Counted from the first letter of the stretch, positions 2,723 to 64,000 are shown. The stretch is 64,000 nucleotides of DNA from Limnochordia bacterium (GCA_050951545.1 JBMNJG010000004.1:224001-288000); one strand, 5' to 3'. The notes: a model not told the origin generated them from the sequence alone. Made by a program: numbers and translations.

Positions 2723-2798
2723 GCCAGCGTAGCTCAATTGGCAGAGCACCCGCCTTGTAAGCGGGAGGTTGCGGGTTCGATTCCCACCGCTGGCTCCA
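2723..2798 (+). tRNA. tRNA-Thr(TGT)
   Basis: Cloverleaf; anticodon arm CCCGC-CTTGTAA-GCGGG; GTTCGA T-loop; encoded CCA. Confidence 0.95.
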
Positions 2799-2844
2799 AC
2801 TTCTCTTAGCCATGAGAACCCTAGCGTTAGTGCTTCGAGAGGTC

Positions 2845-2873
2845 TTGACAACCCACCAACAGGATGTTACGAT
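2845..2873 (+). promoter_or_regulatory. promoter for tRNA-Tyr/tRNA-fMet
   Basis: TTGACA-17 bp-TACGAT with TG extension. Confidence 0.6.
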
Positions 2874-2894
2874 TGTATTCGTTGCTCGTAACGT

Positions 2895-2980
<86 letters not shown>

Positions 2981-2985
2981 TATGT

Positions 2986-3062
2986 CGCGGGGTGGAGCAG
3001 CCAGGTAGCTCGTCGGGCTCATAACCCGAAGGTTGTCGGTTCAAATCCGGCCCCCGCAACCA
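2986..3062 (+). tRNA. initiator tRNA-fMet(CAT)
   Basis: CGCGGGG start with C1:A72 mismatch; GGG/CCC anticodon stem; CAT anticodon. Confidence 0.95.
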
Positions 3063-3065
3063 AGC

Positions 3066-3107
3066 AGCAGAGTCTGTGTCTCGTAAAGGCGCAGACTCTG
3101 CTCTTTT
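3066..3107 (+). terminator. intrinsic terminator after tRNA-fMet
   Basis: AGCAGAGTCTGTGTCT/AGGCGCAGACTCTGCT stem followed by CTTTT. Confidence 0.65.
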
Positions 3108-3192
3108 ATCCGCAGTGGCGTCATTATTCATTTCATCGATATTTGGTGTAGACGAGGGCCGAGGTGGTGTGGTACAATGCATCGTGTGGCAG

Positions 3193-3270
3193 GCCCGTAT
3201 AGCTCAGCCGAGGCAGAGCGCACCCTTGGTAAGGGTGAGGTCGCCGGTTCGACTCCGGCTACGGGCTCCA
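3193..3270 (+). tRNA. tRNA-Thr(GGT)
   Basis: Acceptor stem GCCCGTA/TACGGGC; anticodon arm CACCC-TTGGTAA-GGGTG; encoded CCA. Confidence 0.93.
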
Positions 3271-8868: not shown

Positions 8869-11800
8869 TTGGCAATAGCAACTCAGCTGGGGAAGCGCCA
8901 GAGGATCTCATTCGGGAAGATCCACGAGGTCCTCGAGATGCCCGATCTGATCGAGGTCCAGAGGAAATCGTATGCGGCGTTTCTGCGTGAAGGTCTGATT
9001 GAGGTATTTGCCGATATTTCACCAATCCAGGACTTCACAGGCAATCTTGTGCTCGAGTTCATTGACTACGTCCTCGGCGAACCCAAGTACGACATTGCTG
9101 AGTGCAAGGACCGCGATGTCACTTACGCTGCTCCTTTGAGGGTTCGTGTCCGCCTGATCAACAAAGAGACTGGCGAAGTCAAGGAGCAAGAGGTCTTCAT
9201 GGGTGATTTTCCCCTGATGACCGACAATGGGACATTCATTATCAATGGCGCGGAGCGCGTAGTCGTCAGTCAGCTTGTCAGGTCTTCCGGTGTTTACTTT
9301 GACCGAGTGTACGATACGAGCGGCAAAATCCTATTCAAGGCCAGCATTATTCCGAACCGCGGGGCCTGGCTGGAGTTCGAGTGCGATGCCAACGATTGCA
9401 TCTATGTGCGCGTGGATCGCACCCGGAAGATTCCTGCCACGGTCTTGTTGCGCGCTCTGGGCTATGGAACAAACGCGAAGATCAACGACCTCTTTCAGGA
9501 CGCAGAGCCGATTCGGGCAACGCTTGAGCGTGATAACACCGAAAGTGAAGCTGAGGCTCTAGTTGAGATCTACAAGCGGTTGCGACCTGGGGAGCCTCCA
9601 ACGGAGGAAAGCGCTCGAGCGCTGTTTGAAACACTTTTCTACGACCCGAAGCGCTACGATCTCGCCGGAGTCGGCCGTTACAAGGCGAATAAAAAGCTTC
9701 GCATGATGCCACGCATTGTTGGGCGCATAGCCGTGGAGCCTGTTGTGGTTCCTGAGACGGGTGAGATCCTAATAGATGCGGGTATGAAGATCGATCGTCG
9801 ACAGGCAGAGCAGGTAGAGAAGGCTGGTATCGCTAGCGTCGTCATCGAAGGACGGGACGGCGTACCCGTCAAGGTGATCGGAAACGGGGCACCAGATAGT
9901 GACGTCAAGACCATTGCACCTGGGGACATTGTGGCCACCATTGACTACATTGTAGGTTTGATGTATGAGATTGGCAGTGTGGATGACATTGACCACTTGG
10001 GGAACCGCCGTCTGAAATCAGTAGGCGAGTTACTGCAGAATCAGTTCCGCATTGGCCTGTCACGCATGGAACGCGTGGTACGCGAGCGAATGACGATCCA
10101 GGATGTCGACATCATCACCCCACAGGCACTGATCAACATCAGACCCGTAGTGGCTGCTATCAAGGAGTTTTTTGGTAGCTCTCAGCTATCACAGTTTATG
10201 GACCAGACTAACCCACTTGCCGAGTTGACGCACAAACGGCGTCTTTCTGCGTTGGGACCAGGGGGTCTCTCACGCGAGCGAGCGGGCTTCGAGGTCCGCG
10301 ACGTACATCACTCCCACTACGGACGTATGTGTCCAATTGAGACCCCAGAGGGTCCGAATATCGGGCTCATTGGTAGTCTGTGCACTTACGCGCGAATCAA
10401 TGAGTACGGCTTTATCGAGACGCCCTATAGACGTGTAGACCAGGGGCGCATTTCCGATGAGATCGTATACCTGACTGCTGATGAAGAGGATAACTACGTC
10501 GTGGCCCAGGCCAATGAGCCCTTTGACGACAATGGACACTTCTTGCATCCAAGGGTTTCGGCGCGCTATATGGACAAAATCGTAATCGTTCCGGCTGATG
10601 AGATCGACTTCATGGATGTCTCGCCCAAGCAACTCGTATCTATTGCCACGGCGCTGATTCCTTTTCTGGAAAACGATGACGCCTCCCGGGCCCTCATGGG
10701 ATCCAACATGCAGCGACAGGCCGTGCCCTTGCTGAGAAGTGACGCACCCTACGTTGGCACAGGCATGGAGTTCAAGTCGGCCGTTGACTCTGGCGCTGTC
10801 ATTCTCGCCAAAGAAGACGGCGTGATAGAGCGGGTGAGTGCCTGCGAGATCGTGCTCAGAGGTGATTCGGGCCAGGAGCATCGCTACCGGCTTACCAAAT
10901 TTGCGCGTTCAAACCAAGGTACCTGCATCAACCAGCGGCCCACCTGCCAGCACGGACAGCGAGTACGAAAGGGCGAAATGCTAGCCGATGGTCCGTCTAC
11001 AGATCAGGGCGAGTTGGCCTTGGGGCGCAATGTGCTCTGCGCTTTCATGCCTTGGGAAGGTTATAACTACGAGGACGCTATTCTGATCAGCGAGAAACTC
11101 GTCAAGGAAGATGTCTTCACATCAATTCACATCGAGGAATACGAGGCGCAAGCTCGTGACACCAAGCTGGGTTCAGAAGAGATCACTCGAGACATCCCCA
11201 ATGTGGGCGAAGACGTTCTCAAAGACCTCAACGATGATGGCATTATCCGCATCGGTGCTGAGGTACGCCCCGGCGATATACTGGTCGGAAAGGTGACGCC
11301 AAAGGGTGAGACCGAGCTCACGGCTGAAGAGCGGCTCTTGAGGGCCATCTTCGGGGAGAAGGCCCGAGAGGTGCGCGACACCTCACTGCGGGTTCCCCAT
11401 GGCGAGGGTGGTGTCGTCGTCGATGTTCGCGTCTTCTCCCGGGAGAACGGGGACGAGCTTTCCCCCGGTGTTAACCGATTGGTGCGAGTCTATATAGCGC
11501 AGAAACGCAAGATATCTGAAGGCGACAAGATGGCTGGTCGACACGGCAACAAGGGTGTTGTTGCTCGTATTATGGCTGAGGAAGATATGCCATTTCTCCC
11601 AGACGGTACACCTGTCGAGATCGTCCTAAACCCCCTTGGGGTCCCCTCCCGTATGAATCTCGGGCAGGTGTTGGAAACCCATCTCGGGTTAGCGGCCAAG
11701 GCGATGGGTATCTATGTCGCTACACCAGTTTTCGACGGTGCGACTGAGAAGGAAATTGACGAGCTCTTGCGTAAGGCAGGTCAGCCAGTCGACGGAAAGT

Positions 11801-15600: not shown

Positions 15601-16230
15601 GTGGAGCTTGGCGACAGACTGACTGAAGGTGCGGTCAATCCGCACGATATTCTCCGAGTGAAAGGAACTCGCGCAGTTCAGACCTATTTGGTACAGGAAG
15701 TACAGGATGTCTACCGTTCTCAGGGCGTCGACATCAACGACAAGCATATTGAGGTCATCGTTCGCCAGATGCTACGCAAGGTCAAGGTGGAAACACCGGG
15801 AGATACTGAACTGCTTCCCGGAGGCCTCGTGGATGTCTTCGACTTTGAAGAGGAGAACGAGCGCGTGCTGCGTGAAGGCGGGGAGCCTGCTACGGCTAAA
15901 CCAGCATTGCTTGGCATCACCAAGGCCTCTTTGGCCACGGAGAGCTTCTTGTCTGCGGCATCGTTCCAGGAGACAACGCGTGTACTCACGGAGGCATCGA
16001 TAAAGGGGAAATCGGACCCGTTGCTTGGACTCAAGGAGAACGTGATTATCGGTAAGCTGGTTCCAGCAGGAACTGGCATGGCGCGCTACAGACAGGTCCA
16101 ACCGCTGCTTCCGCCTGGGGCAGAGGAGCAGGAAGAGCCAGATGGCGAAGGAGCACCAAACGGTGTTCCGGAACGTGTTGGCCTCAGCACCGATATTGAA
16201 GTGCACACGCACGCCGAGGCTGAGATCTAG
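12673..16230 (+). CDS. rpoC: DNA-directed RNA polymerase beta' subunit
   Basis: NADFDGDQM catalytic motif and Zn finger; TTG start after AAGGAGG. Confidence 0.99.
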
Positions 16231-16272
16231 AGACTGCAACCCAGCCGTACCCAAGGCTCTTGCGACTTGTGA

Positions 16273-16301
16273 TTGACAGTGCACGCCGCAACGTGTAGAA
16301 T
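16273..16301 (+). promoter_or_regulatory. promoter of the L7Ae-str operon
   Basis: TTGACA-17 bp-TAGAAT. Confidence 0.7.
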
Positions 16302-16358
16302 AACCAAGTGTGCCGCCTTGAGGTACGGCTGGGCACTCCAAGCCCAGGGGGTGTAGGC

Positions 16359-16631
16359 ATGCCGAGTCGGTTGAAGGAGGCGCGCCGGAAAGCGGTCGGT
16401 ACTAACGAGACGCTCCGGGCACTAGAGACAGGGTCTGCAGTGGTGGTCTTTGTCGCGGCTGACGCAGAACAGCGAGTGACTCGTCCCGTGCTGGAGCTGG
16501 CAGCGCGCCAGCAGCTGGAGTTGATCCGTGTGGAAGCGATGTCAGCTCTGGGCAGGTTGTGTGGCATCGACGTGGGCACGGCCTGTGCTGCGCTGCTGAA
16601 AGAACCCGCTGGTCGGGTGATGAACGTATAG
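16359..16631 (+). CDS. ribosomal L7Ae/L30e-like K-turn-binding protein (YbxF/RulS-like)
   Basis: VGTNETLRAL..VFVAADA..LGRLCGIDVG; position before rpsL. Confidence 0.88.
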   Translation: MPSRLKEARRKAVGTNETLRALETGSAVVVFVAADAEQRVTRPVLELAARQQLELIRVEAMSALGRLCGIDVGTACAALLKEPAGRVMNV

Positions 16632-16682
16632 ATTTTGGGTCTCAGGGGACATTCTCGTTTGTGCAGAAAGGGGGGACTATTC

Positions 16683-17096
16683 ATGCCAACGATTAGTCAG
16701 CTTGTAAGAAAAGGACGGCAAGCGTCTGAGAATCGCAGTGCGGCACCGGCCCTTCTCTATCGGTTCAACAGCAAGAAGAACCGCGTGCTAGAAGGAGAAG
16801 GCTCGCCACAAAAGCGCGGTGTCTGCTTGCGCGTATACACCCACACGCCAAAGAAACCGAACTCTGCTCTGCGCAAAGTGGCCCGTGTGCGGCTCACGAA
16901 CCAAATAGAGGTGACTTCCTACATTCCAGGTGAGGGTCATAACCTGCAAGAGCACTCGGTCGTACTTATCCGGGGTGGCAGGGTAAAGGATCTTCCTGGT
17001 GTGCGCTATCACATCGTGCGTGGCACCCTAGATGCCGCCGGAGTCAGCAACCGTAAACAGAGCAGATCGAAGTATGGTGCCAAGAGCGAGAAGTAA
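16683..17096 (+). CDS. rpsL: 30S ribosomal protein S12 (with Firmicutes-type insert)
   Basis: [10 protein letters not shown] and [12 protein letters not shown]. Confidence 0.98.
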
Positions 17097-17116
17097 CAGG
17101 CAAAGGGGGGAAGGGC

Positions 17117-17587
17117 ATGCCGCGCAGGGGATACGTGGCCAAGCGTGAGGTTCACGCTGATCCGGTTTTCAACAGCAAGTTAGCCACGCAGTTCATCAGT
17201 AAGCTTATGGTGGACGGGAGAAGGGGTCTGGCTGAGAGCATCTTCTATGAGGCCTTAGACACCGTTCGGCAGAAGACAGGAAAAGATCCTATCGAAGTGC
17301 TCGAGACGGCGATGAAGAATGTCATGCCCGTGCTTGAAGTAAAACCTCGCCGTGTAGGAGGAGCCACATACCAGGTGCCAGTTGAGGTCAGAGCTGAGCG
17401 TAGAACTGCTCTAGCACTGCGGTGGCTGGTCCAGTACACGCGTGAGCGTCCGGAAAGGCGCATGGCAGATCGCTTGGCGGCCGAGCTGATGGATGCGGCT
17501 AACAACCAAGGTAACTCGGTGAAGAAACGCGAAGATACGCATCGCATGGCTGAGGCCAACAAGGCCTTCGCACACTATCGTTGGTAA
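17117..17587 (+). CDS. rpsG: 30S ribosomal protein S7
   Basis: [11 protein letters not shown] and [15 protein letters not shown]. Confidence 0.98.
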
Positions 17588-20992: not shown

Positions 20993-21008
20993 TCGCGTGC
21001 TAGCTAGC

Positions 21009-21074
21009 GATGAGGCGGGAGGTTGCCTACCCCCACACTCAGAGGTGTGGGGTAACGGGGGAATTTCCGCGGAG
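21009..21074 (+). ncRNA. putative S10 (rpsJ) leader RNA
   Basis: GATGAGGCGGGAGGTTGC...hairpin CCCCACAC/GTGTGGGG...TTTCCGCGGAG resembles Firmicutes rpsJ leaders as recalled. Confidence 0.55.
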
Positions 21075-21112
21075 CATGCTCGTGAATCGGGCGATGAGGG
21101 AGGAACGTTGCT

Positions 21113-36825: not shown

Positions 36826-39012
36826 GTGCTCATGCGCCTGCGAAATGTGTCTTTCCGCCACCCAGGTGACAGGAGACCTGTACTGTCAGATGTGAACCTG
36901 AGCGTAGAGCGCGGAGAGTGGGTGAGCGTCGTTGGCCCCACTGGCAGTGGCAAGTCGACATTGGGGCGCCTATGCGCCGGATTGCTCGTCCCTGATCGAG
37001 GACACGTCCACAGACACGATGGGCTCCGCGTTGGTTGGATGCCTCAGGATGCCACCGACGCTATCGTGGCCTCGACAGTAGGCGAGGACGTGGCCTTTGG
37101 TCCCGCCAATCTCGGTCTGCGTGGCGCGGAGCTGGAAGCCCGAGTGCTGGAGAGCCTGCTTGCCGTCGGTCTTGACGCAACGTATGTAGAACGCGACCCA
37201 CTCTCCTTGTCGGGCGGGGAGTGTCAACGCGTGGTCCTTGCCGGGTTGCTGGCCATGCAACCGTCACTGCTCATTCTAGATGAACCCACCGGCATGTTGG
37301 ATGGACCGTCGCGCCGGATCTTCCTGAGTACCCTTAGTAAAGCCATCGCCACACACGGTCTCGCAGTTATCTGCATCACGCATGACCTACATGAAGCTGG
37401 ATGTGCCTCTCGAGTCGTCGCCATTCAAGAGGGGCGAGTCATCAACGAGGGGACACCCGAGCGAGTCTTGTCTTCGTCCTCGGTAAGGGCCGCGTTGCAT
37501 GGGCGCGTAGGTGCCCTGTGTGACTCACCAGTATCCTGCAACGGGCCAGTCAGGCCCGTGGAGGTGCAGCTTGCTCTCTCCAGTTTTTCCTATAGTTCAC
37601 TGGCGGGTTCGGGTGAGGTCCTTAAGGATGTGTCGCTTCGTATCCGCCCAGGCGCCAAGGTGGCTATTACCGGAAGATCCGGAGCAGGCAAGAGCACACT
37701 CCTGCTCGCGGTGGCTGGGCTTCTGAAGGTAGACGATGGTGTTCTGTCGTATGGTAGCCGGGTGATCAGTGATAACGCTGATAGGCGCTGGCTACGAAGC
37801 CAAGTGGGTATAGCCCTGCAGCACCCAGAGCGGCAGCTGTTTGCGGACTCAGTATGGAATGAGGTGATGTTCGGTCCGCTGAATCTCGGCGAGAACCGTT
37901 CGGAAGCTCAACAGCTGGCTGATATGGCCATGCGCTGTGCTGGCCTAGATCCTGATGTGCTGGGCCCGCGTAGCCCGTTCGCGCTGAGTGGCGGTGAGCA
38001 GCGGCAGGTGGCTCTGGCGTCTGTCTTGGCCACCAAATCGCCTTTGCTCATTCTGGATGAGCCTACTGCTGGGCTGCATCAGGGGGCCGCTAAGCAGATC
38101 ATGTGCTCCATCGATCACTATCTGCAGAGCACAGGAGCTTCGTGCTGTATAGCTACGCACGATCTGGAGCTGGCCCAGGCTTGGGCTGATGAGCATCAGG
38201 TGTTACGTGCCGAAGGGAGAGGCGCGCGCACCAGGCGCCAGCGGCCATTTTACGCTGAGGCTCACAGTACACCATCGCCTATGCAGAATCTGGACCCGCG
38301 GGCCACGATCTTGGCCACTAGCTTGCTTGCACTGGCGGCGACTGTGATTGACAGCTGGCGAGGCTGGTTTGTCCTGGTGGGTGGTCTCGTTCTGATCTAC
38401 GGCGTGGCGCGTGTATCGCTGATGTCCTTCTCCCGCCTTGTGCGTCCCTTTCTGCCGCTGGCTTGCGTGGCCGTGCTGCTGAGCAACGAGGGGAGCGGGG
38501 GGAGCCCCCTGGCGAACCTAGGGAGTTGGGTTTATAGCACAGCAGACCTCAAGGCTGGTCTATGGTCAGCGGCGAAGATGCTTTTGCTGGTCAGTAGCGT
38601 TGGTTGGCTGACACTCACTACCGCTCCAAGGCGCCTTGTGGAAGGGCTGCGTCTTTTGGTGCGCTTCGTCCCTGGCGTGGATGAAGATCGTCTTGGTATG
38701 GGCATCTTAGTTGCCTTTCGGTTTGTGCCCATCGTAAGAACCGAAGCAAAATGGCTCCGTCTGGCGCAGACCGCCCGCGGGGCGGATCTGCAGAAGGGCG
38801 TGGTTGGGGTCTACCGTAGACTAGTCAGCACGGTAGTGCCGCTCTTGGCAGGTGTCTGGCGTCGAGCGGATGCTTTGGCAGAAGCTCTGGTCATGCGCGG
38901 CTACGGAGCGCATCGCTCTAATGATGATTCGCAGGGTCTGGGGCGCGATGAGCTGTTGCTGTTGGTTGGGGTGCTCACGCTAATGCTCGTGTCAGTTCTG
39001 CTGGATGGGTGA
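36826..39012 (+). CDS. fused energy-coupling-factor module EcfA-EcfA'-EcfT
   Basis: Two ABC domains (GPTGSGKST/LSGGE/LDEPT and GRSGAGKST/LSGGE/LDEPT), then a CbiQ/EcfT region (LDPR, AQTARG, ALVMRGY); canonical ecf position between rplQ and truA. Confidence 0.85.
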   Translation: MLMRLRNVSFRHPGDRRPVLSDVNLSVERGEWVSVVGPTGSGKSTLGRLCAGLLVPDRGHVHRHDGLRVGWMPQDATDAIVASTVGEDVAFGPANLGLRGAELEARVLESLLAVGLDATYVERDPLSLSGGECQRVVLAGLLAMQPSLLILDEPTGMLDGPSRRIFLSTLSKAIATHGLAVICITHDLHEAGCASRVVAIQEGRVINEGTPERVLSSSSVRAALHGRVGALCDSPVSCNGPVRPVEVQLALSSFSYSSLAGSGEVLKDVSLRIRPGAKVAITGRSGAGKSTLLLAVAGLLKVDDGVLSYGSRVISDNADRRWLRSQVGIALQHPERQLFADSVWNEVMFGPLNLGENRSEAQQLADMAMRCAGLDPDVLGPRSPFALSGGEQRQVALASVLATKSPLLILDEPTAGLHQGAAKQIMCSIDHYLQSTGASCCIATHDLELAQAWADEHQVLRAEGRGARTRRQRPFYAEAHSTPSPMQNLDPRATILATSLLALAATVIDSWRGWFVLVGGLVLIYGVARVSLMSFSRLVRPFLPLACVAVLLSNEGSGGSPLANLGSWVYSTADLKAGLWSAAKMLLLVSSVGWLTLTTAPRRLVEGLRLLVRFVPGVDEDRLGMGILVAFRFVPIVRTEAKWLRLAQTARGADLQKGVVGVYRRLVSTVVPLLAGVWRRADALAEALVMRGYGAHRSNDDSQGLGRDELLLLVGVLTLMLVSVLLDG

Positions 39013-56068: not shown

Positions 56069-59000
56069 TCATTTTATTGGAAGGGGTTTGATGCGGGTGG
56101 CAATCACGCTGACTCCTTCCCCTCGTCGTGAGGTGCGTCCCCACACCATCAACGCTGGAGCCGTAAAGATATCGCGTGCATATCGCTTATAGACATTCTC
56201 GAATATGGTGATATCGCAAAGGCCAGATTCGTCCTCCAGACTGAGAAAGACTACGGTACGACCACTTCTGGTAGGAGGCCGATGTGGCCGAATCACGATG
56301 CCCGCTACGCCAACTGCACCTTCCACGCCGCCGCAACTCACTTCACCACAGGTTTTCATGCCGCGTCGTACCAGCTGTGGGCGAAGGAACTGCATGAGAT
56401 GCTTCTCGGGGGAAAACCCAAGCAGGATGATCTCGTGCATTACTTTATCGAAGACAGGGTAATCGGCTAGTTCGTGATGGGGGTTGGGACGATCCAATTC
56501 CAGGGGCAATGCTAGCTGTGCTCCTTGACCACACATGGCTAGTGTCTCCCGAAGCTGCCAAAGCAATTGCCGCCGGTTCGAATGCAACGTATCAAAAGCC
56601 CCCGCTTGAATTAGGTTTTTCACTACGTCACGAGGGAGGCGTACACGCTGACAAAAATCCCAAAAAGACTGATAGGGGCTTTGAGTCCTAGAAGAGAGCA
56701 CAGACTGGGCCATCGCAAGTGATAGGCCCTTGACTTGTGTTAAAGAGACTCTGATTGCGCCATTTTCCACGGTAAAGCGAAGGTCGCTTTTGTTCACGTC
56801 TAGAGGCAGGATACGTACACCCCGGCGTTTAGCTTCCGTAATGATCGTGGCCGGGGGGTAAAAACCCATCGGCTGATGGCTGAGAATAGCGGCGAAGAAC
56901 TCCGCGGGGTAGTGCGTCACCAGATAGGCTGTCTTATAGGCCGTATCAGAAAACGCCGCTGCGTGTGCCTCACAGAATCCATAGCCTGCATATCCCACGA
57001 TGTAGGAGAACAGGGTTTCAGCAACATCTTGTGTGACACCACGCTTCATTGCCTTGGCAATGAATTCCTGACCGATGCGATCCATGTCTTTTTGCGAACG
57101 AAAATGGGTCATCACTTTGCGAAGCCGATCGGCTTCGCCCGGACTGAAGCCAGCAATCGTGACGGCGATCTCGATCACTTGCTCTTGAAAAAGCACAACA
57201 CCATAGGTCTTGGCGAGAATGGGTTCTAGGTCTGGGTGAATGTAGCTGACTGGTAGCAGACCATTTCTGTGGGCGATAAATGGTTCGACCATGTTGCCCT
57301 GTATGGGGCCAGGACGAATGAGAGCGATGCTGGCTACAATGTCTTCGATGTTCTCTGCGCCCAATCGCGTCTGCAATGCCCTTTGTGCAGGGCTCTCTAG
57401 CTGAAAGACGCCTATGCTGTTTCCTTGATTGAGTGCTGCATAGGTAGGAGCGTCATCCAGTGGAATCGCGGTGTATTCCATGGGAGGTTCCCCTAAAGCC
57501 TCCTGAGTAGAATGGATATCGCCGATGGCAGTCTGAACGGCTGACAACGTGCGCAAGGATAGCAAATCCAGCTTCATTAGGCCTAGATCCGCTATGTCGT
57601 CTTTGTCGAACTGAATAATGCTCATGCCCTTCGCAGCCATCTGCAACGGGCTAACCTCCATGAGGGGCCGGTTACTGATCACCAAGCCGCCCAGATGGGT
57701 ACCGATGTGGCGCGGAAACCCGGCTACTTGTTCAACGAGGTCGATGAGTTCTTCATAGCGCGCAAAAGGCAGGCCGCTTTTTTGGAGTTCGGGATAGGCA
57801 GCGATCGCTTTGCGTATGCCGTCAGCAGGGACATGCGGAAACGATTTGGCCAGTTTATCTACTTCCTGAAGGGGGAAGCCCATGGCTTTGCCGAAATCGC
57901 GTAGAGCAGAGCGGGCATGATATGTGTGGTAGGTACATACGGAAGCGACGTGTTCTTCACCGTAAGTGGCATAGACGTAACGGGCTATGTCATCGCGATA
58001 GCGAGCATCAAAATCGATATCAATGTCTGGCTGCTGGGCTCGCTCTAAGCTGAGAAAGCGTTCGAAAAGCAGCCCTCTACTGATGGCATCGACATTCGTG
58101 ATATAGAGGCAATAGACGACAGCCGAGTCTGCGGCAGAGCCGCGACCAGTATGACGGATGCCCTGTTCGCGAGCAAAGCGGACGATATCCCAGGCCACAA
58201 GGAAATAGTCCGCAACCCCAAGGGCATCAATGATACGCAACTCGTGTTCTAGTCTCTCACGTATGGTTTTCGTGATAGACCCATATCGCTCTTGCGCTCC
58301 TTGAAAGGTCAGCTGCTGCAGAAACTGAATAGCGCTGTTACCATCAGGCGTGGTGAAGGCAGGGAATAAACGCTCATTCAAAGGTACAGCTACGTCACAT
58401 AGGTCAGCTATCTCAAGTGTGCCGTGCAGTGCTTGCGGCAGGTCGTGAAAACGAGTCGCCATCTCTTCCGATGTAAGTAAATAGTTCTCTGCATTGAGAC
58501 GCCTTGCGGGATGGATACTCTGGAGACGGGTCAGAGTGCGCACGCACGTCAAGACATCGTGTACAGGAAACTGCTCTTTGTAGGCATAATGCGCATTGGC
58601 GGTAGCCGCCATGGGCAGACTGAGATACTCTGCCAGATCGCGTAAGTGACGGTTAAGCGTGCGCGTGCGGGGGAGAAGATTCTCTTGAACCTCGATGTAG
58701 AAGCGTCTAGGGAAGGCGGCAGCATAAGCAGAGGCAGCTGCTAAAGCTTGCTGATTTTGGCCTTGCAGTATAAGAGTGGCGACTTCGCCATGACGGCACC
58801 CAGATAGGGCGATGAGACCTTCACTATGCTCAGCGAGAAGATCCCGGGAAACCTGAGGTAGGCCGCGCGGCGCCTCGAGGTGGGCCCGTGTTACCAACCA
58901 GCAGAGATTGGTGTAGCCTGTACGATTTTGGCATAGAAGGGTGAGGTGACAGCCATTGTCGAGGGTGACTTCACATCCTTGAATGGCTTTTATGCCCATC

Positions 59001-59176
59001 GCCGTAGCCAGTTTGTGAAAGCGCACAGCAGCGGACAGATTGTTGTGATCGGTAATTGCCAGCGCTCGGCATCCTATTTTTGCAGCGCGGGTAAGCAATG
59101 AGTCCAGTGATGCTGCGCCGTCAAGGAACGAGAATGGTGAATGGACATGTAGATGAGCACACATAGAGGATGCCAT
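56069..59176 (-). CDS. dnaE2: error-prone DNA polymerase III alpha, DnaE2/ImuC type
   Basis: PHP motif HLHVHSPFSFLDG; GRGSAADS; PDIDIDF; KLDLL; FQLESPAQ; YGFCEAHA; QPMGFY; C-terminal OB fold. Start reassigned to the ATG just after the upstream gene's stop. Confidence 0.9.
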   Translation of the reverse strand: MASSMCAHLHVHSPFSFLDGAASLDSLLTRAAKIGCRALAITDHNNLSAAVRFHKLATAMGIKAIQGCEVTLDNGCHLTLLCQNRTGYTNLCWLVTRAHLEAPRGLPQVSRDLLAEHSEGLIALSGCRHGEVATLILQGQNQQALAAASAYAAAFPRRFYIEVQENLLPRTRTLNRHLRDLAEYLSLPMAATANAHYAYKEQFPVHDVLTCVRTLTRLQSIHPARRLNAENYLLTSEEMATRFHDLPQALHGTLEIADLCDVAVPLNERLFPAFTTPDGNSAIQFLQQLTFQGAQERYGSITKTIRERLEHELRIIDALGVADYFLVAWDIVRFAREQGIRHTGRGSAADSAVVYCLYITNVDAISRGLLFERFLSLERAQQPDIDIDFDARYRDDIARYVYATYGEEHVASVCTYHTYHARSALRDFGKAMGFPLQEVDKLAKSFPHVPADGIRKAIAAYPELQKSGLPFARYEELIDLVEQVAGFPRHIGTHLGGLVISNRPLMEVSPLQMAAKGMSIIQFDKDDIADLGLMKLDLLSLRTLSAVQTAIGDIHSTQEALGEPPMEYTAIPLDDAPTYAALNQGNSIGVFQLESPAQRALQTRLGAENIEDIVASIALIRPGPIQGNMVEPFIAHRNGLLPVSYIHPDLEPILAKTYGVVLFQEQVIEIAVTIAGFSPGEADRLRKVMTHFRSQKDMDRIGQEFIAKAMKRGVTQDVAETLFSYIVGYAGYGFCEAHAAAFSDTAYKTAYLVTHYPAEFFAAILSHQPMGFYPPATIITEAKRRGVRILPLDVNKSDLRFTVENGAIRVSLTQVKGLSLAMAQSVLSSRTQSPYQSFWDFCQRVRLPRDVVKNLIQAGAFDTLHSNRRQLLWQLRETLAMCGQGAQLALPLELDRPNPHHELADYPVFDKVMHEIILLGFSPEKHLMQFLRPQLVRRGMKTCGEVSCGGVEGAVGVAGIVIRPHRPPTRSGRTVVFLSLEDESGLCDITIFENVYKRYARDIFTAPALMVWGRTSRRGEGVSVIATRIKPLPIK

Positions 59177-59177
59177 T

Positions 59178-59426
59178 TCAATCCAGAACTCTGTAGAGAT
59201 ACCAGGATTTGGCTTGGAGGTCAAAATAGAGCTCGAAGGTACCACCATCGCTGGTCTGCAACAGGTAGAATGCTTTCTCGCCTTCGCCTTCCCACCAGCA
59301 ACCAGTATCTCGCCATGTTTCGTGTATCTGTATGATATCGCGCCAGTTAGCATGCCAGAAAAAGCGCAAGGGCAAACCATGACGGTCGGAAGCTATAGTG
59401 ATGGGTTGATCGATAAGCCTGCTCAA
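59178..59426 (-). CDS. DUF6504-like small protein (resembles the ImuB C-terminal domain)
   Basis: 82 aa from a TTG after GAGGTG; PLRFFW..W...GCWWEGE....Y......G..EL.FD.....WYL..VLD. Confidence 0.75.
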   Translation of the reverse strand: MSRLIDQPITIASDRHGLPLRFFWHANWRDIIQIHETWRDTGCWWEGEGEKAFYLLQTSDGGTFELYFDLQAKSWYLYRVLD

Positions 59427-59446: not shown

Positions 59447-59460
59447 CGAACAGGTGTTTG
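59447..59460. promoter_or_regulatory. LexA (SOS/Cheo) box
   Basis: CGAACAGGTGTTTG fits the Firmicutes GAAC-N4-GTTY consensus; lies between the promoter and the RBS of DUF6504-dnaE2. Confidence 0.75.
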
Positions 59461-59468
59461 GTAGCTCT

Positions 59469-59497
59469 ATCATACAACAGGTGGTGCTGGGCGTCAA
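59469..59497 (-). promoter_or_regulatory. sigma-A promoter of the DUF6504-dnaE2 operon
   Basis: Minus strand TTGACG-17 bp-TATGAT. Confidence 0.7.
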
Positions 59498-59561: not shown

Positions 59562-61394
59562 GTGGTAAGAACCTAGCGATGCGGCCCTCGCGAAGCCCTT
59601 TTTGCTCATTTTGACCGCCCGAAGGGCTCATTTCCCCGCCCAAAAGCACGCTTTCCCGCCCTGGCGGCCCCTTGGGGGCTGCCGCGCAGCACATAACCCG
59701 ACGGTGGTGATACCTTTTTCCCACTCAGACGATTGGGTCAGCTCCCCAGTGCGCGATCACAGCGGACTCGCTCGGATCCCTCTGCGGACCAACCCTTCGG
59801 TGTTGCCCCGGTCGGTGTATTTCGAAAAAGGTGGGCAGACGCCATGCACCATGCACACGCTCGCGAGACTGGCTCGGTAGTCGGACAGATGCACCCGGAC
59901 TGGTACGTGAGTCGGGGCCAAGAATCCGACCGCCATGGCAAAAGAGCCGCCTCATTAGCCCCCGGGCCCAATGTATGTGGTAAAAGTGCAGCGATGCGGC
60001 CTTCGCGAAGCCCTTTTTGCTCATTTTGACCGCCCGAAGGGCTCATTTCCCCGCCCGAAGGGCTCATTTCCCCGCCCAAGAGCACGCTTTCCCGCCCTGG
60101 CGGCCCCTTGGGGGCTACCGCGCAGCACATAACCCGACGGTGGTGATACCTTTTTCCCACTCAGACGATTGGGTCAGCTCCCCAGTGCGCGATCACAGCG
60201 GACTCACTCGGATCCCTCTGCGGACCAACCCTTCGGTGTTGCCCCGGTCGGTGCATTTCGAAAAAGGTGGACAGATGCAATGGACGCGCTCGCGAAACAG
60301 GCCCTGCAGTCAGACACCAACCGAATTGGTACGTGAGTCGGGGCCAAGAATCCGACCGCCATGGCAAAAGAGCCGCCTCATTAGCCCCCGGGCCCAATGT
60401 ATGTGGTAAAAGTGCAGCGATGCGGCCTTCGCGAAGCCCTTTTTGCTGATTTTGATTGCCTGAAGGGCTCATTTCCCCGCCCAAGAGCGCGCTTTCCCGC
60501 CTTGGTGGCCCTTCTGGGGGCTACCGCGCAGCACATAACCCGACGCCGTGGTGATCGCCTTTTGCCCACTCAGACGATTGGGTCAGCTCTCCAGTGCGCG
60601 ATCACAGCGGGCTCGCTCGGATCCCTCTGCGGACCAATCCTTCGGTGTTGCCCCAGTCGGTGTATCTCGAAAAAGGTGGACAGATGCAATGGACGCGCTC
60701 GCGAGACTGGCTCGGTAGTCGGACACCAGCCGGATTGGTACGTGAGTCGGGGCCAAGAATCCGACCGCCATGGCAAAAGAGCCGCCTCATTAGCCCCCGG
60801 GGCCAATGTACGTGGTAAAAGTGCAGCGATGCGGCCTTCGCGAAGCCCTTTTTGCTCATTTTGACCGCCCGAAGGGCTCATTTCCCCGCCCAAGAGCGCG
60901 CTTTCCCGCCTTGGTGGCCCTTCTGGAGCTACTGGGCAGTACATAACCCGACGGTGGTGATACCTTTTTCCCACTCGGACGATTGGGTCAGCTCTCCAGT
61001 GCGCGATCACAGCGGGCTCGCTCGGATCCCTCTGCGGACCGACCCTCTCGGTGTTGCCCCGGTCGGTGTATTTCGAAAAAGGTGGACGGACACCATGCAC
61101 ACGCTCGCGAGACTGGCTCGGTAGTCGGACAGATGCACCCGGATTGGTACGTGAGTCGGGGCCAAGAATCCGACCGCCATGGCAAAAGAGCCGCCTCATT
61201 AGCCCCCGGGCCCAATGTACGTGGTATAAGTGCAGCGATGCGGCCTTCGCGAAGCCCTTTTTGCTCATTTTGACCGCCCGAAGGGCGCATTTCCCCGCCT
61301 AAGAGCACGCTTTCCCGCCCTGGTGGCCCTTCTGGAGCTACTGGGCAGTACATAACCCGACGCAATGTCGATCGCCTTTTCCCACTCAGCCGAT
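59562..61394. repeat. non-coding tandem array of ~4.4 units of ~410 bp
   Basis: Anchor AGCGATGCGGCC at 59575, 59990, 60416, 60825 and 61234 gives periods of 415, 426, 409 and 409 bp; the fifth copy ends near 61394. Confidence 0.95.
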
Positions 61395-61518
61395 GATCCG
61401 AGGGCGAAATGCTGTCGACTCCCGGTGGCCACCGGGTCTTAGCCGGCAATGCGCGCGTTTTCAGCGAAAGCTGTGGAAGGATTCTGGCCTCACGTACCGA
61501 ACATCGCATCGAGACAAT

Positions 61519-61532
61519 CGAACACATGATCG
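61519..61532. promoter_or_regulatory. possible LexA box upstream of the HTH-nuclease gene
   Basis: CGAACACATGATCG (one mismatch to CGAAC-N4-GTTCG) just before the GAGGTG RBS; weaker copy at 61498-61511. Confidence 0.45.
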
Positions 61533-61550
61533 TTATGTGAGGTGAGGCCC

Positions 61551-62612
61551 TTGTACTCTCTCTATGTAGATGAGGTGAACGTGCCGCTCTCACTGCTACT
61601 GACTCGCGAGTTAAAGGCAAGCGAGAAGATCGTTTGGATGGCCTTAACGATGGATGATCAGCTGGAGGAAAGTTTCCTTTTCTCGCCCAGCCGCCTGGGG
61701 CGGCGCACGGGTATGTCCCGGCCTACCGTTCGCAGGGCGACGGCCAAGTTAACCACCGAGGGCTGGTTTGCTCCACCGGCTAGGCGGGGACCTAGCCAGG
61801 CCCCAGCACAGAAGCCATCCCCGGACAGGGTCTCCGTGCCTGTCGAGCTAGTCATGGCTACTGAAATCCATGCACAGGCCAAATTGGTTTATGCCCTACT
61901 GCTGTCCAAACCTACGGACCCACCTCGCAAAAGGCAGTTCACATACGCTGAGTTAGCCGGCCGGATGAGTCTGAGCCCCCAGACGGTCAAACACGCGGCT
62001 CGTCAGTTGGCCAAGCATGGTTGGCTGGAGATGGAGCAGGCGCACAAGCGGGCACCGATTCGCTTCTCTCTCCACAACCCGGTTGATAAGCGAAATGTAA
62101 AAGAAATACTAGACGTGCAGGATGAGCTCCACCGCGCTACGCACCTCGGAGAGGCTCTCATGCAGGCTATCTTCTTGGCGCTTGTCGATTGCCTTGACTT
62201 CGACGACGGAATGCGCCCAGGTTTCATGAGGAACCCAGCAACTGGCAAGCGTCTGGAGGTCGATCTCTTCTACTACTTGCACAATACGGCCATGGAGTTC
62301 AATGGGGCGCAACACTACCGCGTCACGGAGCGGAATTCGGCTGAGCAGGTCCATAAGCAGCAATGCCGTGACCAGACCAAACAGCAGATCTGCGCTAAGA
62401 AGAAGATCAAGCTGATCGTGATTCAGGCTCACGAGCTGTCCTGCAAGATCATCAAGCGCAAGATTCGCAGGCGGCTGCCATTCCGGCGCGGTCAGGACTT
62501 CAACCGGAGGCTCATCAACTATCTCGAGTGTAGATGCGGTGAGTACCAGCAAAGAATAGATGAACGTGGCTGGGGAACCGCCAGCCAATCTGAGAGAAAG
62601 CAAGACGAGTAG
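61551..62612 (+). CDS. tandem winged-HTH (replication-initiator-like) plus Vsr/DUF559-like endonuclease protein
   Basis: Internal duplication VP..L....L....K.V...L...F....L....S..TV.....L...GW; C-terminal E...RPGFMRNPATGKRLEVDLF....AMEFNGAQHY...RD..K...C...I.LI.I; TTG start after GAGGTG. Confidence 0.75.
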   Translation: MYSLYVDEVNVPLSLLLTRELKASEKIVWMALTMDDQLEESFLFSPSRLGRRTGMSRPTVRRATAKLTTEGWFAPPARRGPSQAPAQKPSPDRVSVPVELVMATEIHAQAKLVYALLLSKPTDPPRKRQFTYAELAGRMSLSPQTVKHAARQLAKHGWLEMEQAHKRAPIRFSLHNPVDKRNVKEILDVQDELHRATHLGEALMQAIFLALVDCLDFDDGMRPGFMRNPATGKRLEVDLFYYLHNTAMEFNGAQHYRVTERNSAEQVHKQQCRDQTKQQICAKKKIKLIVIQAHELSCKIIKRKIRRRLPFRRGQDFNRRLINYLECRCGEYQQRIDERGWGTASQSERKQDE

Positions 62613-62958: not shown

Positions 62959-64000
62959 TTGCTTGTGGACGTAAAGAGGCTGGTGATGGGTCAGGAAGTA
63001 CTAGAGCGCACATTGCCTTCAGGACTGACTGTGGTTCTGCTTCACAAACCTGGTTATGCGCAGAGATTTGCCGCCTTGGCTACGAATTACGGCGGCATGG
63101 ATTCGGCTTTCGTGGTACCGGGGCAATCGCAGCCGACAGAGGTACCTGACGGTATTGCTCACTTCCTGGAGCATAAGCTGTTTGAGGAACCCGACGGAGT
63201 CGATATTTCACAGCGCTTCTCGCAGATGGGCATGAGCACAAATGCCTACACAGGCTCATACTACACGGTATATCACTTCACTACGGTAGATCACTTCGAT
63301 GAGGGGCTTGATCTGCTGCTGCATTTCGTTCAGAATCCATATTTCACCGATGAAAGCGTGGCCAAAGAGCAAGGGATCATTGAGCAAGAGATCCAGATGG
63401 GGCTCGATAGCCCGTCACGGATGGTCTACTACAATTTCATGGAGTCCATGTTCCATGTGCACCCTGCTAGAATCCGCACCATCGGTTCGGTGGAGTCCGT
63501 TGCGCGCATCAACAAAGAGCTACTTCACAGATGCTATGACACATTTTACCATCCGAGCAACATGATGCTCATAGTGGCTGGCGAGCTGGATTTTGCCAAA
63601 GTGCTCTCGCAAGTAGAAAAGGATCTGGCCACAAGAGGTTATACGACACGAGAGCCAATTACCCGCGTGACACCTACGGAGCCAGATCGCGTAGTGCACC
63701 CAGAAACCAGAATCGAGCTCAAGGTATCTCGCCCCCGGGTGATGATGGGCTTCAAGGGGAGCTTGCCAGCGGATGGTCGTCACTATCACCGACAGCTTAT
63801 CGCCGCCGATCTCGCCTTGAGTGCGGTCTTGGGAAAACTGAATCCGAGTTACTGGCAGCTGTACGAGAAGGGCGTCATCACAGAGGGTTTCCGCTTTGGC
63901 TACTCCGCGTATCGGGGGATTGGTTACGTGTGGATTGACGGTGAGTCAGAAGACGCCGACTCTTTCGTGGCTGAGGTAACAAAGACTTTGCAGCGAGCAA
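62959..64000 (+). CDS. M16 family Zn-peptidase (YmfH-like), 3'-truncated by the window edge and absent from the ORF track
   Basis: Hand translation TLPSGLTV..VPDGIAHFLEHKLFE..NAYT..VQNPYFTDESVAKEQGIIEQEI, containing HxxEH. Confidence 0.88.
   Translation, partial: MLVDVKRLVMGQEVLERTLPSGLTVVLLHKPGYAQRFAALATNYGGMDSAFVVPGQSQPTEVPDGIAHFLEHKLFEEPDGVDISQRFSQMGMSTNAYTGSYYTVYHFTTVDHFDEGLDLLLHFVQNPYFTDESVAKEQGIIEQEIQMGLDSPSRMVYYNFMESMFHVHPARIRTIGSVESVARINKELLHRCYDTFYHPSNMMLIVAGELDFAKVLSQVEKDLATRGYTTREPITRVTPTEPDRVVHPETRIELKVSRPRVMMGFKGSLPADGRHYHRQLIAADLALSAVLGKLNPSYWQLYEKGVITEGFRFGYSAYRGIGYVWIDGESEDADSFVAEVTKTLQRA

Follow-up and report, generated by a model that had tools for sequence, protein, structure and literature searches.

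Is a 409-bp Tandem Array in a Limnochordia Chromosome a Target Region for the Winged-Helix Nuclease Encoded beside It?

Introduction

The stretch of 64,000 nucleotides analyzed here, called the window in the following, comes from a Limnochordia bacterium (GCA_050951545.1 JBMNJG010000004.1:224001-288000), and all positions are counted from its first letter. It raises the question of what is the role of a non-coding tandem array located at 59575..61394, directly in front of a gene (61551..62612, + strand) for a 353-residue protein in which two winged helix-turn-helix (wHTH) domains are followed by a nuclease domain. An initial annotation, made from the sequence alone, had proposed that the repeat and the protein form one module. 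It had offered three interpretations of this module, namely a selfish element with a nuclease that amplifies its own repeat, a decoy or origin-like binding array, and an array of structured RNAs used by the protein.

Our preferred reading, to which we assign a probability of about 0.4, is that the array acts at the DNA level, as a region of multiple binding or target sites for the adjacent wHTH-nuclease protein. The parts are of known kinds. Their combination, the multi-copy chromosomal lifestyle of the protein family, its association with repeats and the conserved 409-bp array are not described in the papers that were found by literature searches on DUF6504, on DUF2726, on iterons and intergenic tandem repeats, and on free-standing homing endonucleases with tandem repeats.

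Results and Discussion

The array is a higher-order tandem repeat, consisting of four full units and one partial unit in the order A-B-A-B-A-B-A-B-A, where part A is the first 162 nt of the unit and part B, a spacer, is ca 250 nt. No strand is assigned to the array or to its units, which are unit 1 at 59575..59988 (414 bp), unit 2 at 59989..60414 (426 bp, with one additional 21-bp sub-repeat), unit 3 at 60415..60823 (409 bp), unit 4 at 60824..61232 (409 bp), and the partial unit 5 at 61233..61394, which is part A alone (162 nt). Three methods agree on this arrangement. Tandem Repeats Finder (TRF) reports a period of 409 bp at 60051-61362 (3.2 copies, 92% matches, score 2188), and a repeat search of the window finds five in-register copies with spacings of 415, 426, 409 and 409 bp. 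Unit 3, aligned to the window with blastn, gives exactly five matches, all within 59575-61394 (88–100% identity, E 1.6e-54 to 0), and no copy outside the array, the sole other match in the window being a chance one of 14 bp (E 0.26). The ca 4.4 copies of a 409–426 bp unit described in the initial annotation are thus confirmed, with the derived unit starts at most 1 bp from its anchors.

Outside gaps, the full units are 91.9–95.0% identical to each other, and the indels among them cover 21, 7, 3, 2, 1, 1 and 1 columns. The units do differ by single-nucleotide changes and indels, as had been stated, and three of the four periods (415, 409 and 409 bp by the earlier anchors) are indeed not multiples of 3. 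The variant sites are shared in a mosaic manner, with the division 12|34 of the units at 9 sites and 14|23 at 8, a pattern that unequal exchange or gene conversion would be able to yield. The GC content of the array is 0.610, compared to 0.564 for the window and 0.604 for the next-highest 1.8-kb tile.

Part A begins with a palindrome that has a perfect core of 10 bp and occurs once per unit (59998..60012, without strand, and also at 59583, 60424, 60833 and 61242). Its pattern is matched 9 times, always within the array, while the mean in shuffled sequences is 0.37. After the palindrome come direct sub-repeats of 21 bp at a spacing of 20–21 bp, of which unit 2 has four and the others three. The best-kept cluster of these iteron-like sub-repeats is at 60030..60112 (+), with spacings of 21, 21 and 20 bp and a period of 21 by TRF, and the equivalent clusters, starting at 59615, 60456, 60865 and 61274, consist of sub-repeats of decaying similarity. 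The best 21-mer has 6 matches with at most 3 mismatches, all of them within the array and none in shuffles, and a CCGCCC core occurs 12 times in the array. With part A at both ends of the array, each of the two divergent genes that flank it has an iteron cluster on its side. On the side of the wHTH-nuclease gene, the nearest cluster is ca 215–280 bp from the gene start, and the distance from the 3' end of the array to the TTG start at 61551 is 156 bp, close to the ca 160 bp given previously.

It is important to establish that the array is not an artefact of the assembly, created by the collapse or mis-joining of dispersed copies. In related organisms the array is known from its shadows, that is, translations of open reading frames (ORFs) in metagenome protein clusters, found with a spurious 232-residue ORF of the array as the query. 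Ten clusters from other assemblies correspond to the translated unit, with 56–93% identity, and an eleventh, P0056, came from the search with DUF6504, the family of the gene on the left side of the array. One of them (P0154) covers 1.45 units at 87.5% identity and matches best at one place, 60367-59771. Another (P0162) crosses the right junction, from the unique flank into the array (61509-61021), and P0056 crosses the left junction, linking part A of unit 1 to the unique flank (59649-59472). Finding the tandem order and both unique junctions in independent assemblies argues against mis-assembly and for evolutionary persistence, and judging from these translations the array is conserved in related organisms. 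In favor of an artefact, six of the ten shadows are on contigs of only ca 1–3.7 kb, as expected where repeats break assemblies; some of the array-bearing relatives are on contigs of 170 and 253 kb. In addition, the units differ by 5–8% and have unit-specific indels, so an assembler can place them, and no dispersed copy is present in the other 62 kb of the window. We therefore regard an artefact as hardly credible.

The array was also found to be non-coding, in agreement with the initial annotation. A Pfam search of 14 stop-to-stop frames over two units and of three longer ORFs gave no credible match. A coding or pseudogene origin of the unit was accordingly rejected, the only listed Pfam match being at chance level (E 0.05).

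Another option considered was that the array is a series of tandem structured RNAs used by the protein. The elevated GC content and the conservation of the unit in relatives would be consistent with this. However, Rfam 15 has nothing at the gathering threshold in the array, and a permissive scan gave only three sub-threshold matches to frameshift elements (E 0.27–6.4). The minimum free energy of the unit is ordinary, with z-scores of −0.13 on the + strand and +0.40 on the − strand. Analysis of the four full units with RNAalifold showed compensatory changes in 0 of 115 and 0 of 113 predicted pairs, a comparison of low power with four such similar copies. A promoter and terminator scan found neither a promoter-like site nor a called terminator inside the units. 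The structured-RNA interpretation, one of the three offered originally, is thus not supported, and we consider it very improbable.

Clustered regularly interspaced short palindromic repeats (CRISPR) had been dismissed at the outset, and rightly so: it is the whole 409-bp unit that repeats, the array has no alternation of a short repeat (ca 23–50 bp) with unique spacers of similar length, and no Cas family is found among the neighboring genes. The statement that transposases and terminal inverted repeats are missing also stands, as neither these nor cas genes were found near the array. A search for defence systems at the locus with PADLOC gave weak wHTH-type matches only, such as Csa3 at 5.8e-4. 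A horizontally acquired island was considered on the basis of composition and rejected, the GC content of the gene being average (0.564) and that of the array alone being high. A plasmid or phage origin of the array was rejected as well, there being no DNA match to it in plasmids or phages.

The proposed analogy to repetitive extragenic palindromic sequences (REPs) and their associated tyrosine transposases (RAYTs) did not survive either. The only common point is the idea of a nuclease-type protein linked to its repeated DNA. The protein is not a Y1/IS200-type transposase, and no IS200/IS605-like Y1 transposase domain is found among the Pfam matches of its family. Furthermore, REPs are palindromes of 20–40 bp that are dispersed in hundreds of copies, whereas here there is one local array of 409-bp units and nothing dispersed in the 64 kb. 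Since the defining features of CRISPR, REP/RAYT and the Rep_3 plasmid-origin families were looked for and are not present, the locus falls outside all three.

The protein that would recognize the array had been described as two initiator-like HTH domains combined with a Vsr-like endonuclease domain, and this description holds up in several ways. In the AlphaFold (AF2) model, wHTH1 comprises residues ~8–70 and wHTH2 residues ~93–175, followed by a long helix and the nuclease domain at ~196–313. The model, based on an alignment of 61 sequences, has a predicted local distance difference test (pLDDT) score of 90.9 and a predicted template-modeling (pTM) score of 0.83; with 3 sequences, the C-terminal half is below a pLDDT of 50. 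The C-terminal domain is of the alpha/beta type, and its core is beta-beta-beta-alpha-beta, a restriction-endonuclease-like fold. Pfam detects in the 353-residue protein wHTH families only (HTH_36 at 4.8e-9, then MarR, GntR and IclR types), along with a weak DnaD_N.

The assignment of the C-terminal domain as a nuclease comes mainly from profile and fold comparisons. With PHROGs, it is matched by 'homing endonuclease' in 47 of 61 members, by 'HNH endonuclease' in 47 of 61 and by 'intron encoded nuclease' in 16 of 61, with best E values of 2e-12 to 8.5e-9. Of 57 members, 16 match the Pfam family DUF2726, weakly and below the gathering threshold (best E 0.0036), with the protein of the window itself unmatched. 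A fold search against BFVD gave 82 matches at E ≤1e-3, whose annotations include VSR endonuclease, DUF2726, DUF559, homing endonuclease and restriction endonuclease; for the VSR, DUF2726, DUF559 and restriction endonuclease types the E values are 1e-5 to 2e-4. According to a published study, VSR, DUF559 and DUF2726 form one PD-(D/E)XK clade that includes the structure of an intron homing endonuclease, and the intron-borne I-Bth0305I belongs to this Vsr/DUF559/DUF2726 clade (PMC3424549). The PDB gave less: the sequence-profile searches found no nuclease there, and the fold search with the whole model had no match at E ≤1e-3, with wHTH regulators at the head of the list.

A tblastn search of phages found six phage proteins. 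One of them, in Bacillus phage Internexus, carries zinc-finger modules and adjoins a 'putative homing endonuclease' that shares its domain. Residues D238, E249, G252, Q254, H255, R273, D274 and K277 are common to the family and the phage proteins, being invariant or nearly so. Of these, D238, E249, H255, D274 and K277 are acidic, His and Lys residues that would be candidates for the active site.

The closest known systems include the free-standing homing endonucleases of phages (PHROG 9084, 559 and 7140), and by analogy the module would work most like such an enzyme fused to an iteron reader. The two groups have probably homologous C-terminal nuclease domains of the Vsr/DUF559/DUF2726 type, and both are modular, with an N-terminal DNA-binding part. 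Both also occur as solitary genes between unrelated conserved genes, and in several diverged copies per genome. However, the present family is found in bacterial chromosomes rather than in phages or introns, and its DNA-binding part is an initiator-like wHTH pair instead of zinc fingers or NUMOD-type modules. A further difference is that the family genes frequently have flanking tandem arrays.

The N-terminal part points in another direction, namely to replication initiators. The wHTH domains match phage PHROGs annotated as 'replication initiation O-like', 'replication initiation protein' and 'DnaD-like helicase loader', with phrog_270 found in 26 of 61 members, and BFVD contains a match to a viral 'Replication initiator protein' (E 9e-6). 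The best two-domain fold match in the PDB is RepE54 bound to its iteron, which is a weak one (219 columns, target template-modeling score 0.48, E 0.017), as are the RepE54 and Rep matches in general (E 0.017–0.03). Iteron-binding initiators include RepE, pi and TrfA of plasmids and lambda O. The locus resembles them in its two successive wHTH domains, which are similar to those of initiators in fold and in profile, and in its putative iterons, direct repeats of ca 21 bp at a spacing of ca 21 bp, next to the gene. It differs in that a higher-order repeat of 409 bp contains the iteron clusters and that the C-terminus is a nuclease.

One can then ask whether the locus is an origin-like replication module, in which an initiator-derived protein and its iterons, captured from a phage or plasmid, fire replication or titrate replication factors. 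The similarities to initiators and helicase loaders just described support this, as does the spacing of the sub-repeats, which corresponds to about two helical turns. Other results are against it. A search of 72,556 plasmids gave no match to the protein, and, as noted, the array is unmatched in plasmids and phages. No Rep family, such as Rep_3, is found among the Pfam matches of the 61 members. No AT-rich unwinding element was seen, the array being the most GC-rich stretch, and the nuclease occupies the place of the helicase-recruiting domain of the initiators. Moreover, the array is located in the core chromosome, together with ribosomal-protein operons and EF-Tu, and the relatives of the protein are found among housekeeping genes (see below). 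An origin-like module is for these reasons quite improbable.

The relatives of the protein give information about its way of life. A scan of a genome collection found 65 loci, 62 of them bacterial and 3 from Promethearchaeota (nuclease domain only), compared to only 3 and 4 family members recovered by word-index protein searches. All 65 are at most ca 41% identical to the protein of the window, which indicates that the source lineage is absent from the collection. The family spans Limnochordia, Symbiobacteriaceae and related Bacillota, and it includes shorter forms of 250–300 residues with a single wHTH. Several copies can occur in the same metagenome-assembled genome (MAG), with at least five in one from Symbiobacteriaceae and four in one from Clostridia, and the copy number appears to be 1–6 per genome. 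The family is uncurated, and the sources name it hypothetical or a MarR-type or DtxR-type regulator; in the ESM Atlas it appears as Bacillota clusters of 50–203 members labeled 'hypothetical' or 'MarR family'.

At 24 loci, the six nearest ORFs of each (144 in total) were found to be housekeeping genes; integrases, transposases and phage genes are missing from this set. An all-against-all blastn comparison of the 1.5-kb flanks of paralogues revealed no shared termini or flanks, and mobile-element ends were thus discarded. At one locus (L053:9890-11105), the family gene and a 219-bp × 2 repeat are situated between purH (AICARFT/IMPCHase) and purD (GARS), and this gene looks like an insertion into the purine operon. 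In three Asgard MAGs (the Promethearchaeota loci L063-L065), ORFs of 444–449 residues match the nuclease domain only, at residues ~202–291 and with 29–33% identity. A ribonucleotide reductase with a LAGLIDADG intein is found at L036:11696-15652, 1.1 kb from the family gene.

If the repeat and the protein do form a module, tandem repeats are expected to be enriched beside the family genes. Four comparisons show such an excess. First, 72 of the 233 tandem arrays with a period of at least 10 bp in the flanks of the homologues are within 1 kb of the gene, a zone that makes up 13% of the flank bases, and the corresponding numbers are 28 of 67 for periods of at least 30 bp and 8 of 16 for periods of at least 60 bp. 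Second, a repeat is present in 26 of 108 gene-adjacent intergenic regions compared to 54 of 486 others at the same loci (odds ratio 2.5, p 9e-4), but the adjacent regions are longer (median 194 vs 140 bp), so the counts per region are inflated, and per base the enrichment is only ca 1.5-fold (7.2% vs 4.7% of bases in repeats). Third, a measure based on k-mers, which needs no gene calls and mixes coding and intergenic DNA, finds 17 of 99 gene-adjacent 600-bp windows to be repeat-rich, compared to 36 of 1208 others; the remaining 82 adjacent windows score zero, that is, most family loci have no flanking repeat. Fourth, the same direct repeat is present on both sides of 3 of 43 family genes and of 1 of 264 control genes (p 0.009).

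The repeats near the homologues have mostly periods of 11–94 bp (up to 219 bp) and are found on either side of the gene. Arrays with periods of 11–32 bp stand beside the gene at four loci (L046, L048, L050 and L019), and two orthologous loci from two species (L038 and L041) have 168-bp arrays of 42-bp sub-repeats. In the purine operon mentioned above, the 219 bp × 2 array begins 21 bp past the stop codon. At L059, seven and five copies of a 30-bp repeat with a 17-bp palindrome (9114-9323 and 10762-10912) bracket the family gene.

The small per-base effect, the inflated counts and the many loci without repeats weigh against the preferred reading, and so do a number of further observations. The check suggested in the initial annotation, a search for tandem repeats of 300–500 bp within 2 kb upstream of the homologues, came out negative at all 65 loci, and the array has no sequence similarity to any homologue locus. 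ORFs were called only crudely in the GC-rich DNA, paralogues of one genome do not count as independent, and some of the flanking repeats are coding, as at L002. The only array of the 300–500-bp size class at a homologue locus, in L006, does not adjoin the family gene, which means that such arrays can arise without the gene next to them. At the locus itself, the 21-bp sub-repeat is absent both beside the start of the wHTH-nuclease gene and downstream of the gene. Finally, where the two Bacillus phage proteins have a D at one position, the family has N, and catalytic competence is therefore not assured. As to the claim that repeat and protein are one module, the excess of flanking repeats in four tests, modest and mixed as it is, speaks for it, while the lack of any comparable 300–500-bp upstream array elsewhere does not.

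The L006 array is non-coding, has 3.5 copies of a 381-bp unit (16112-17586), and lies between genes for a pectate lyase and a solute-binding protein, 5 kb from the family gene. Each of its units opens with a hairpin and a T-run, resembling a terminator, and the array is followed by a 10-bp × 7.9 microsatellite and then by the downstream gene.

These points bring up the alternative that the array is a neutral minisatellite, which arose by intergenic tandem duplication through unequal recombination or slippage, and whose position next to the gene is coincidental or due to a common loose intergenic space. It would explain why the unit has no RNA family, excess folding energy, covariation or protein domain. 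The mosaic of variant sites fits unequal exchange, and the L006 array away from the family gene and the ca 1.5-fold enrichment per base also agree with it. Bacterial minisatellites, or variable-number tandem repeats, are likewise non-coding, intergenic, head-to-tail copies with mosaic variants that suggest unequal exchange. Their units are typically tens of bp, however, while the present unit is much longer, has internal sub-repeats, and has been kept, with both junctions, in several diverged relatives. One relative even matches a specific unit better than the units of the window match each other. Neutrality does not account for the excess of flanking arrays in four different tests or for the symmetrical ends of the array, with part A at both, and with 1–6 family copies per genome a chance adjacency is unlikely. 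Taken together, a neutral minisatellite is a strong rival, only somewhat less probable than an array that is bound or targeted by the protein, which we continue to prefer.

Before considering the mechanism, the left flank of the array has to be described. The gene closest to the array there is on the − strand, and its probable extent is 59178..59426, corresponding to 82 codons from a TTG, with a Pfam DUF6504 match at 3.9e-10. The longest ORF begins within unit 1, at an ATG at 59609, and its initial twelve or so codons are found again in every unit. An exhaustive protein search gave 316 relatives with E ≤1e-3. Among the best 150 of them, 147 are 52–150 residues long (most of them ca 75–95) and are aligned to residues ~62–143 of the ORF, from which the true gene is placed at ca 59178-59426; the other 3 are ImuB-like fusions of 398–480 residues with DUF6504 as the C-terminal domain. 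These alignments, together with the arrangement of promoter, SOS box, ribosome-binding site and TTG farther downstream, led us to reject the ATG at 59609 as the start, and the long ORF is probably spurious. No paper on DUF6504 was found in the literature.

Next to DUF6504, on the same strand, is the gene for a DnaE2-type error-prone polymerase (56069..59176, −), identified by its Pfam domains (PHP, pol3 alpha, finger, HHH and OB). Among the NCBIfam families, 'error-prone DNA polymerase' scores best, with 917.6 bits, slightly below the curated cut-off of 939. Translation probably starts at residue 69 of the long dnaE2 ORF, the ATG at 59176, and the 68-codon extension that overlaps DUF6504 is probably spurious. 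The DUF6504 stop and this ATG are one base apart (59174-59180), which suggests translational coupling. No Y-family imuB or imuA was seen beside DnaE2 in the annotated part of the window (40000-64000), where DnaE2 is accompanied by the small DUF6504 protein alone. A replacement of an imuB gene by the array was considered and rejected, the DUF6504 relatives being overwhelmingly stand-alone and the units containing no remnant of a protein.

The upstream region of DUF6504 has, in order, a sigma-70-like promoter for DUF6504-dnaE2 (59469..59497, −, 10/12 matches), an SOS-box-like site, a GAGGTG ribosome-binding site and the TTG start. In sequence, the beginning of the operon looks like a LexA-repressed promoter. 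The SOS-box-like sites were located with the Gram-positive LexA consensus, allowing at most one mismatch. The window contains 4 of them, compared to a shuffle mean of 2.03; since 14 of 100 shuffles reach 4, the total is unremarkable. Two of the four bracket the array. The one at 59447..59460 (−) follows the predicted −10 element of DUF6504 and precedes its ribosome-binding site, and it is closely similar to boxes upstream of the homologues in L009, L021 and L023. The other, at 61519..61532 (+), is 19 bp upstream of the wHTH-nuclease gene start and has one mismatch; it is uncertain because the mismatch falls in the conserved right half-site. The units contain no such site.

At the homologue loci, a relaxed box pattern occurs 27 times in 914 kb, and six of these occurrences are within ca 200 bp upstream of family genes, while 0.68 are expected (L009:9894, L018:9908, L021:288, L023:2021, L031:410 and L039:7392). 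With the full pattern and one mismatch, 6 are found near family genes compared to 0.93 expected (Poisson 4e-4). The six boxes come from two MAGs and are nearly identical, and they are thus not independent. The pattern suggests that part of the family would be induced by DNA damage.

With this arrangement, the array could instead be a platform that regulates the divergent promoters, in the first place that of the putatively SOS-controlled DUF6504-dnaE2 operon, and have an architectural role or be bound by some other regulator. In support of this, the −35 element of a good promoter, which has an SOS-box-like operator, follows the left edge of the array at a distance of 78 bp in the direction of transcription, SOS-box-like sites occur at both flanks, and the position of part A beside DUF6504 is kept in the relative represented by P0056. 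On the other hand, neither dnaE2 nor DUF6504 is found near the homologues at any of the 65 loci, so that nothing outside this lineage connects the mutasome with such arrays. The units themselves lack SOS-box-like sites, and with 1.8 kb the array is much larger than known promoter-upstream elements have to be. A regulatory platform is on balance improbable, and binding or targeting by the wHTH-nuclease protein remains the reading that we favor.

In the mechanism that we envisage for it, the wHTH pair would bind the sub-repeats or the palindrome of part A, and the gene would be induced by DNA damage. The nuclease domain would then nick or cut the DNA, and the resulting recombination between the units would create and maintain the array. 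This last part, that the nuclease makes and keeps the array, is in our view doubtful. An analogy can be drawn to the rDNA arrays of yeast, which are maintained by Fob1 and the replication-fork barrier, and where, according to the model, the copy number is determined by recombination at breaks that a DNA-binding protein provokes from one site per unit. There is no relationship to Fob1 in sequence or fold, and the units here carry no genes.

In its most extended form, the proposal would be that of a chromosomal selfish or domesticated module of Bacillota, of a kind not described before. Its site-specific nuclease would combine the DNA-binding module of a phage replication initiator with a homing-endonuclease domain, would be induced by damage and bind iteron clusters in its flanking array, and its nicks or cuts would drive the break-induced recombination that expands, homogenizes and preserves the array. 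We consider this form somewhat more doubtful still. In this lineage the module would sit back to back with a DUF6504-DnaE2 SOS mutasome, and breaks in the array could receive error-prone repair, which would give a localized, damage-triggered zone of recombination and mutagenesis.

What would follow depends on which reading applies. The family joins an initiator-type reader of iterons to a cutter of the homing-endonuclease type, both of which are well-understood modules. If the arrays are indeed its targets, the locus would offer a simple example, in bacteria, of tandem DNA shaped by a sequence-specific nuclease. This would have bearing on the origin and persistence of prokaryotic minisatellites, and the family could be a source of programmable DNA-binding nucleases. 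If the array is neutral, it still documents a 409-bp minisatellite that is kept across related species, and the annotation of the DUF6504-dnaE2 promoter region is corrected all the same.

Finally, some features elsewhere in the window can be mentioned. A cluster of four tRNA genes is found upstream of EF-Tu (2723-3267), a Clostridia-type S10 ribosomal-protein leader is present at 21002-21094, and YfmH is encoded at 62959-63999; these indicate a core region of a Bacillota chromosome. At 36826-39012, an ORF of 728 residues matches both ECF_ATPase_1 and ECF_ATPase_2, and it looks like a fusion of two ATPase subunits of an energy-coupling factor (ECF) transporter.

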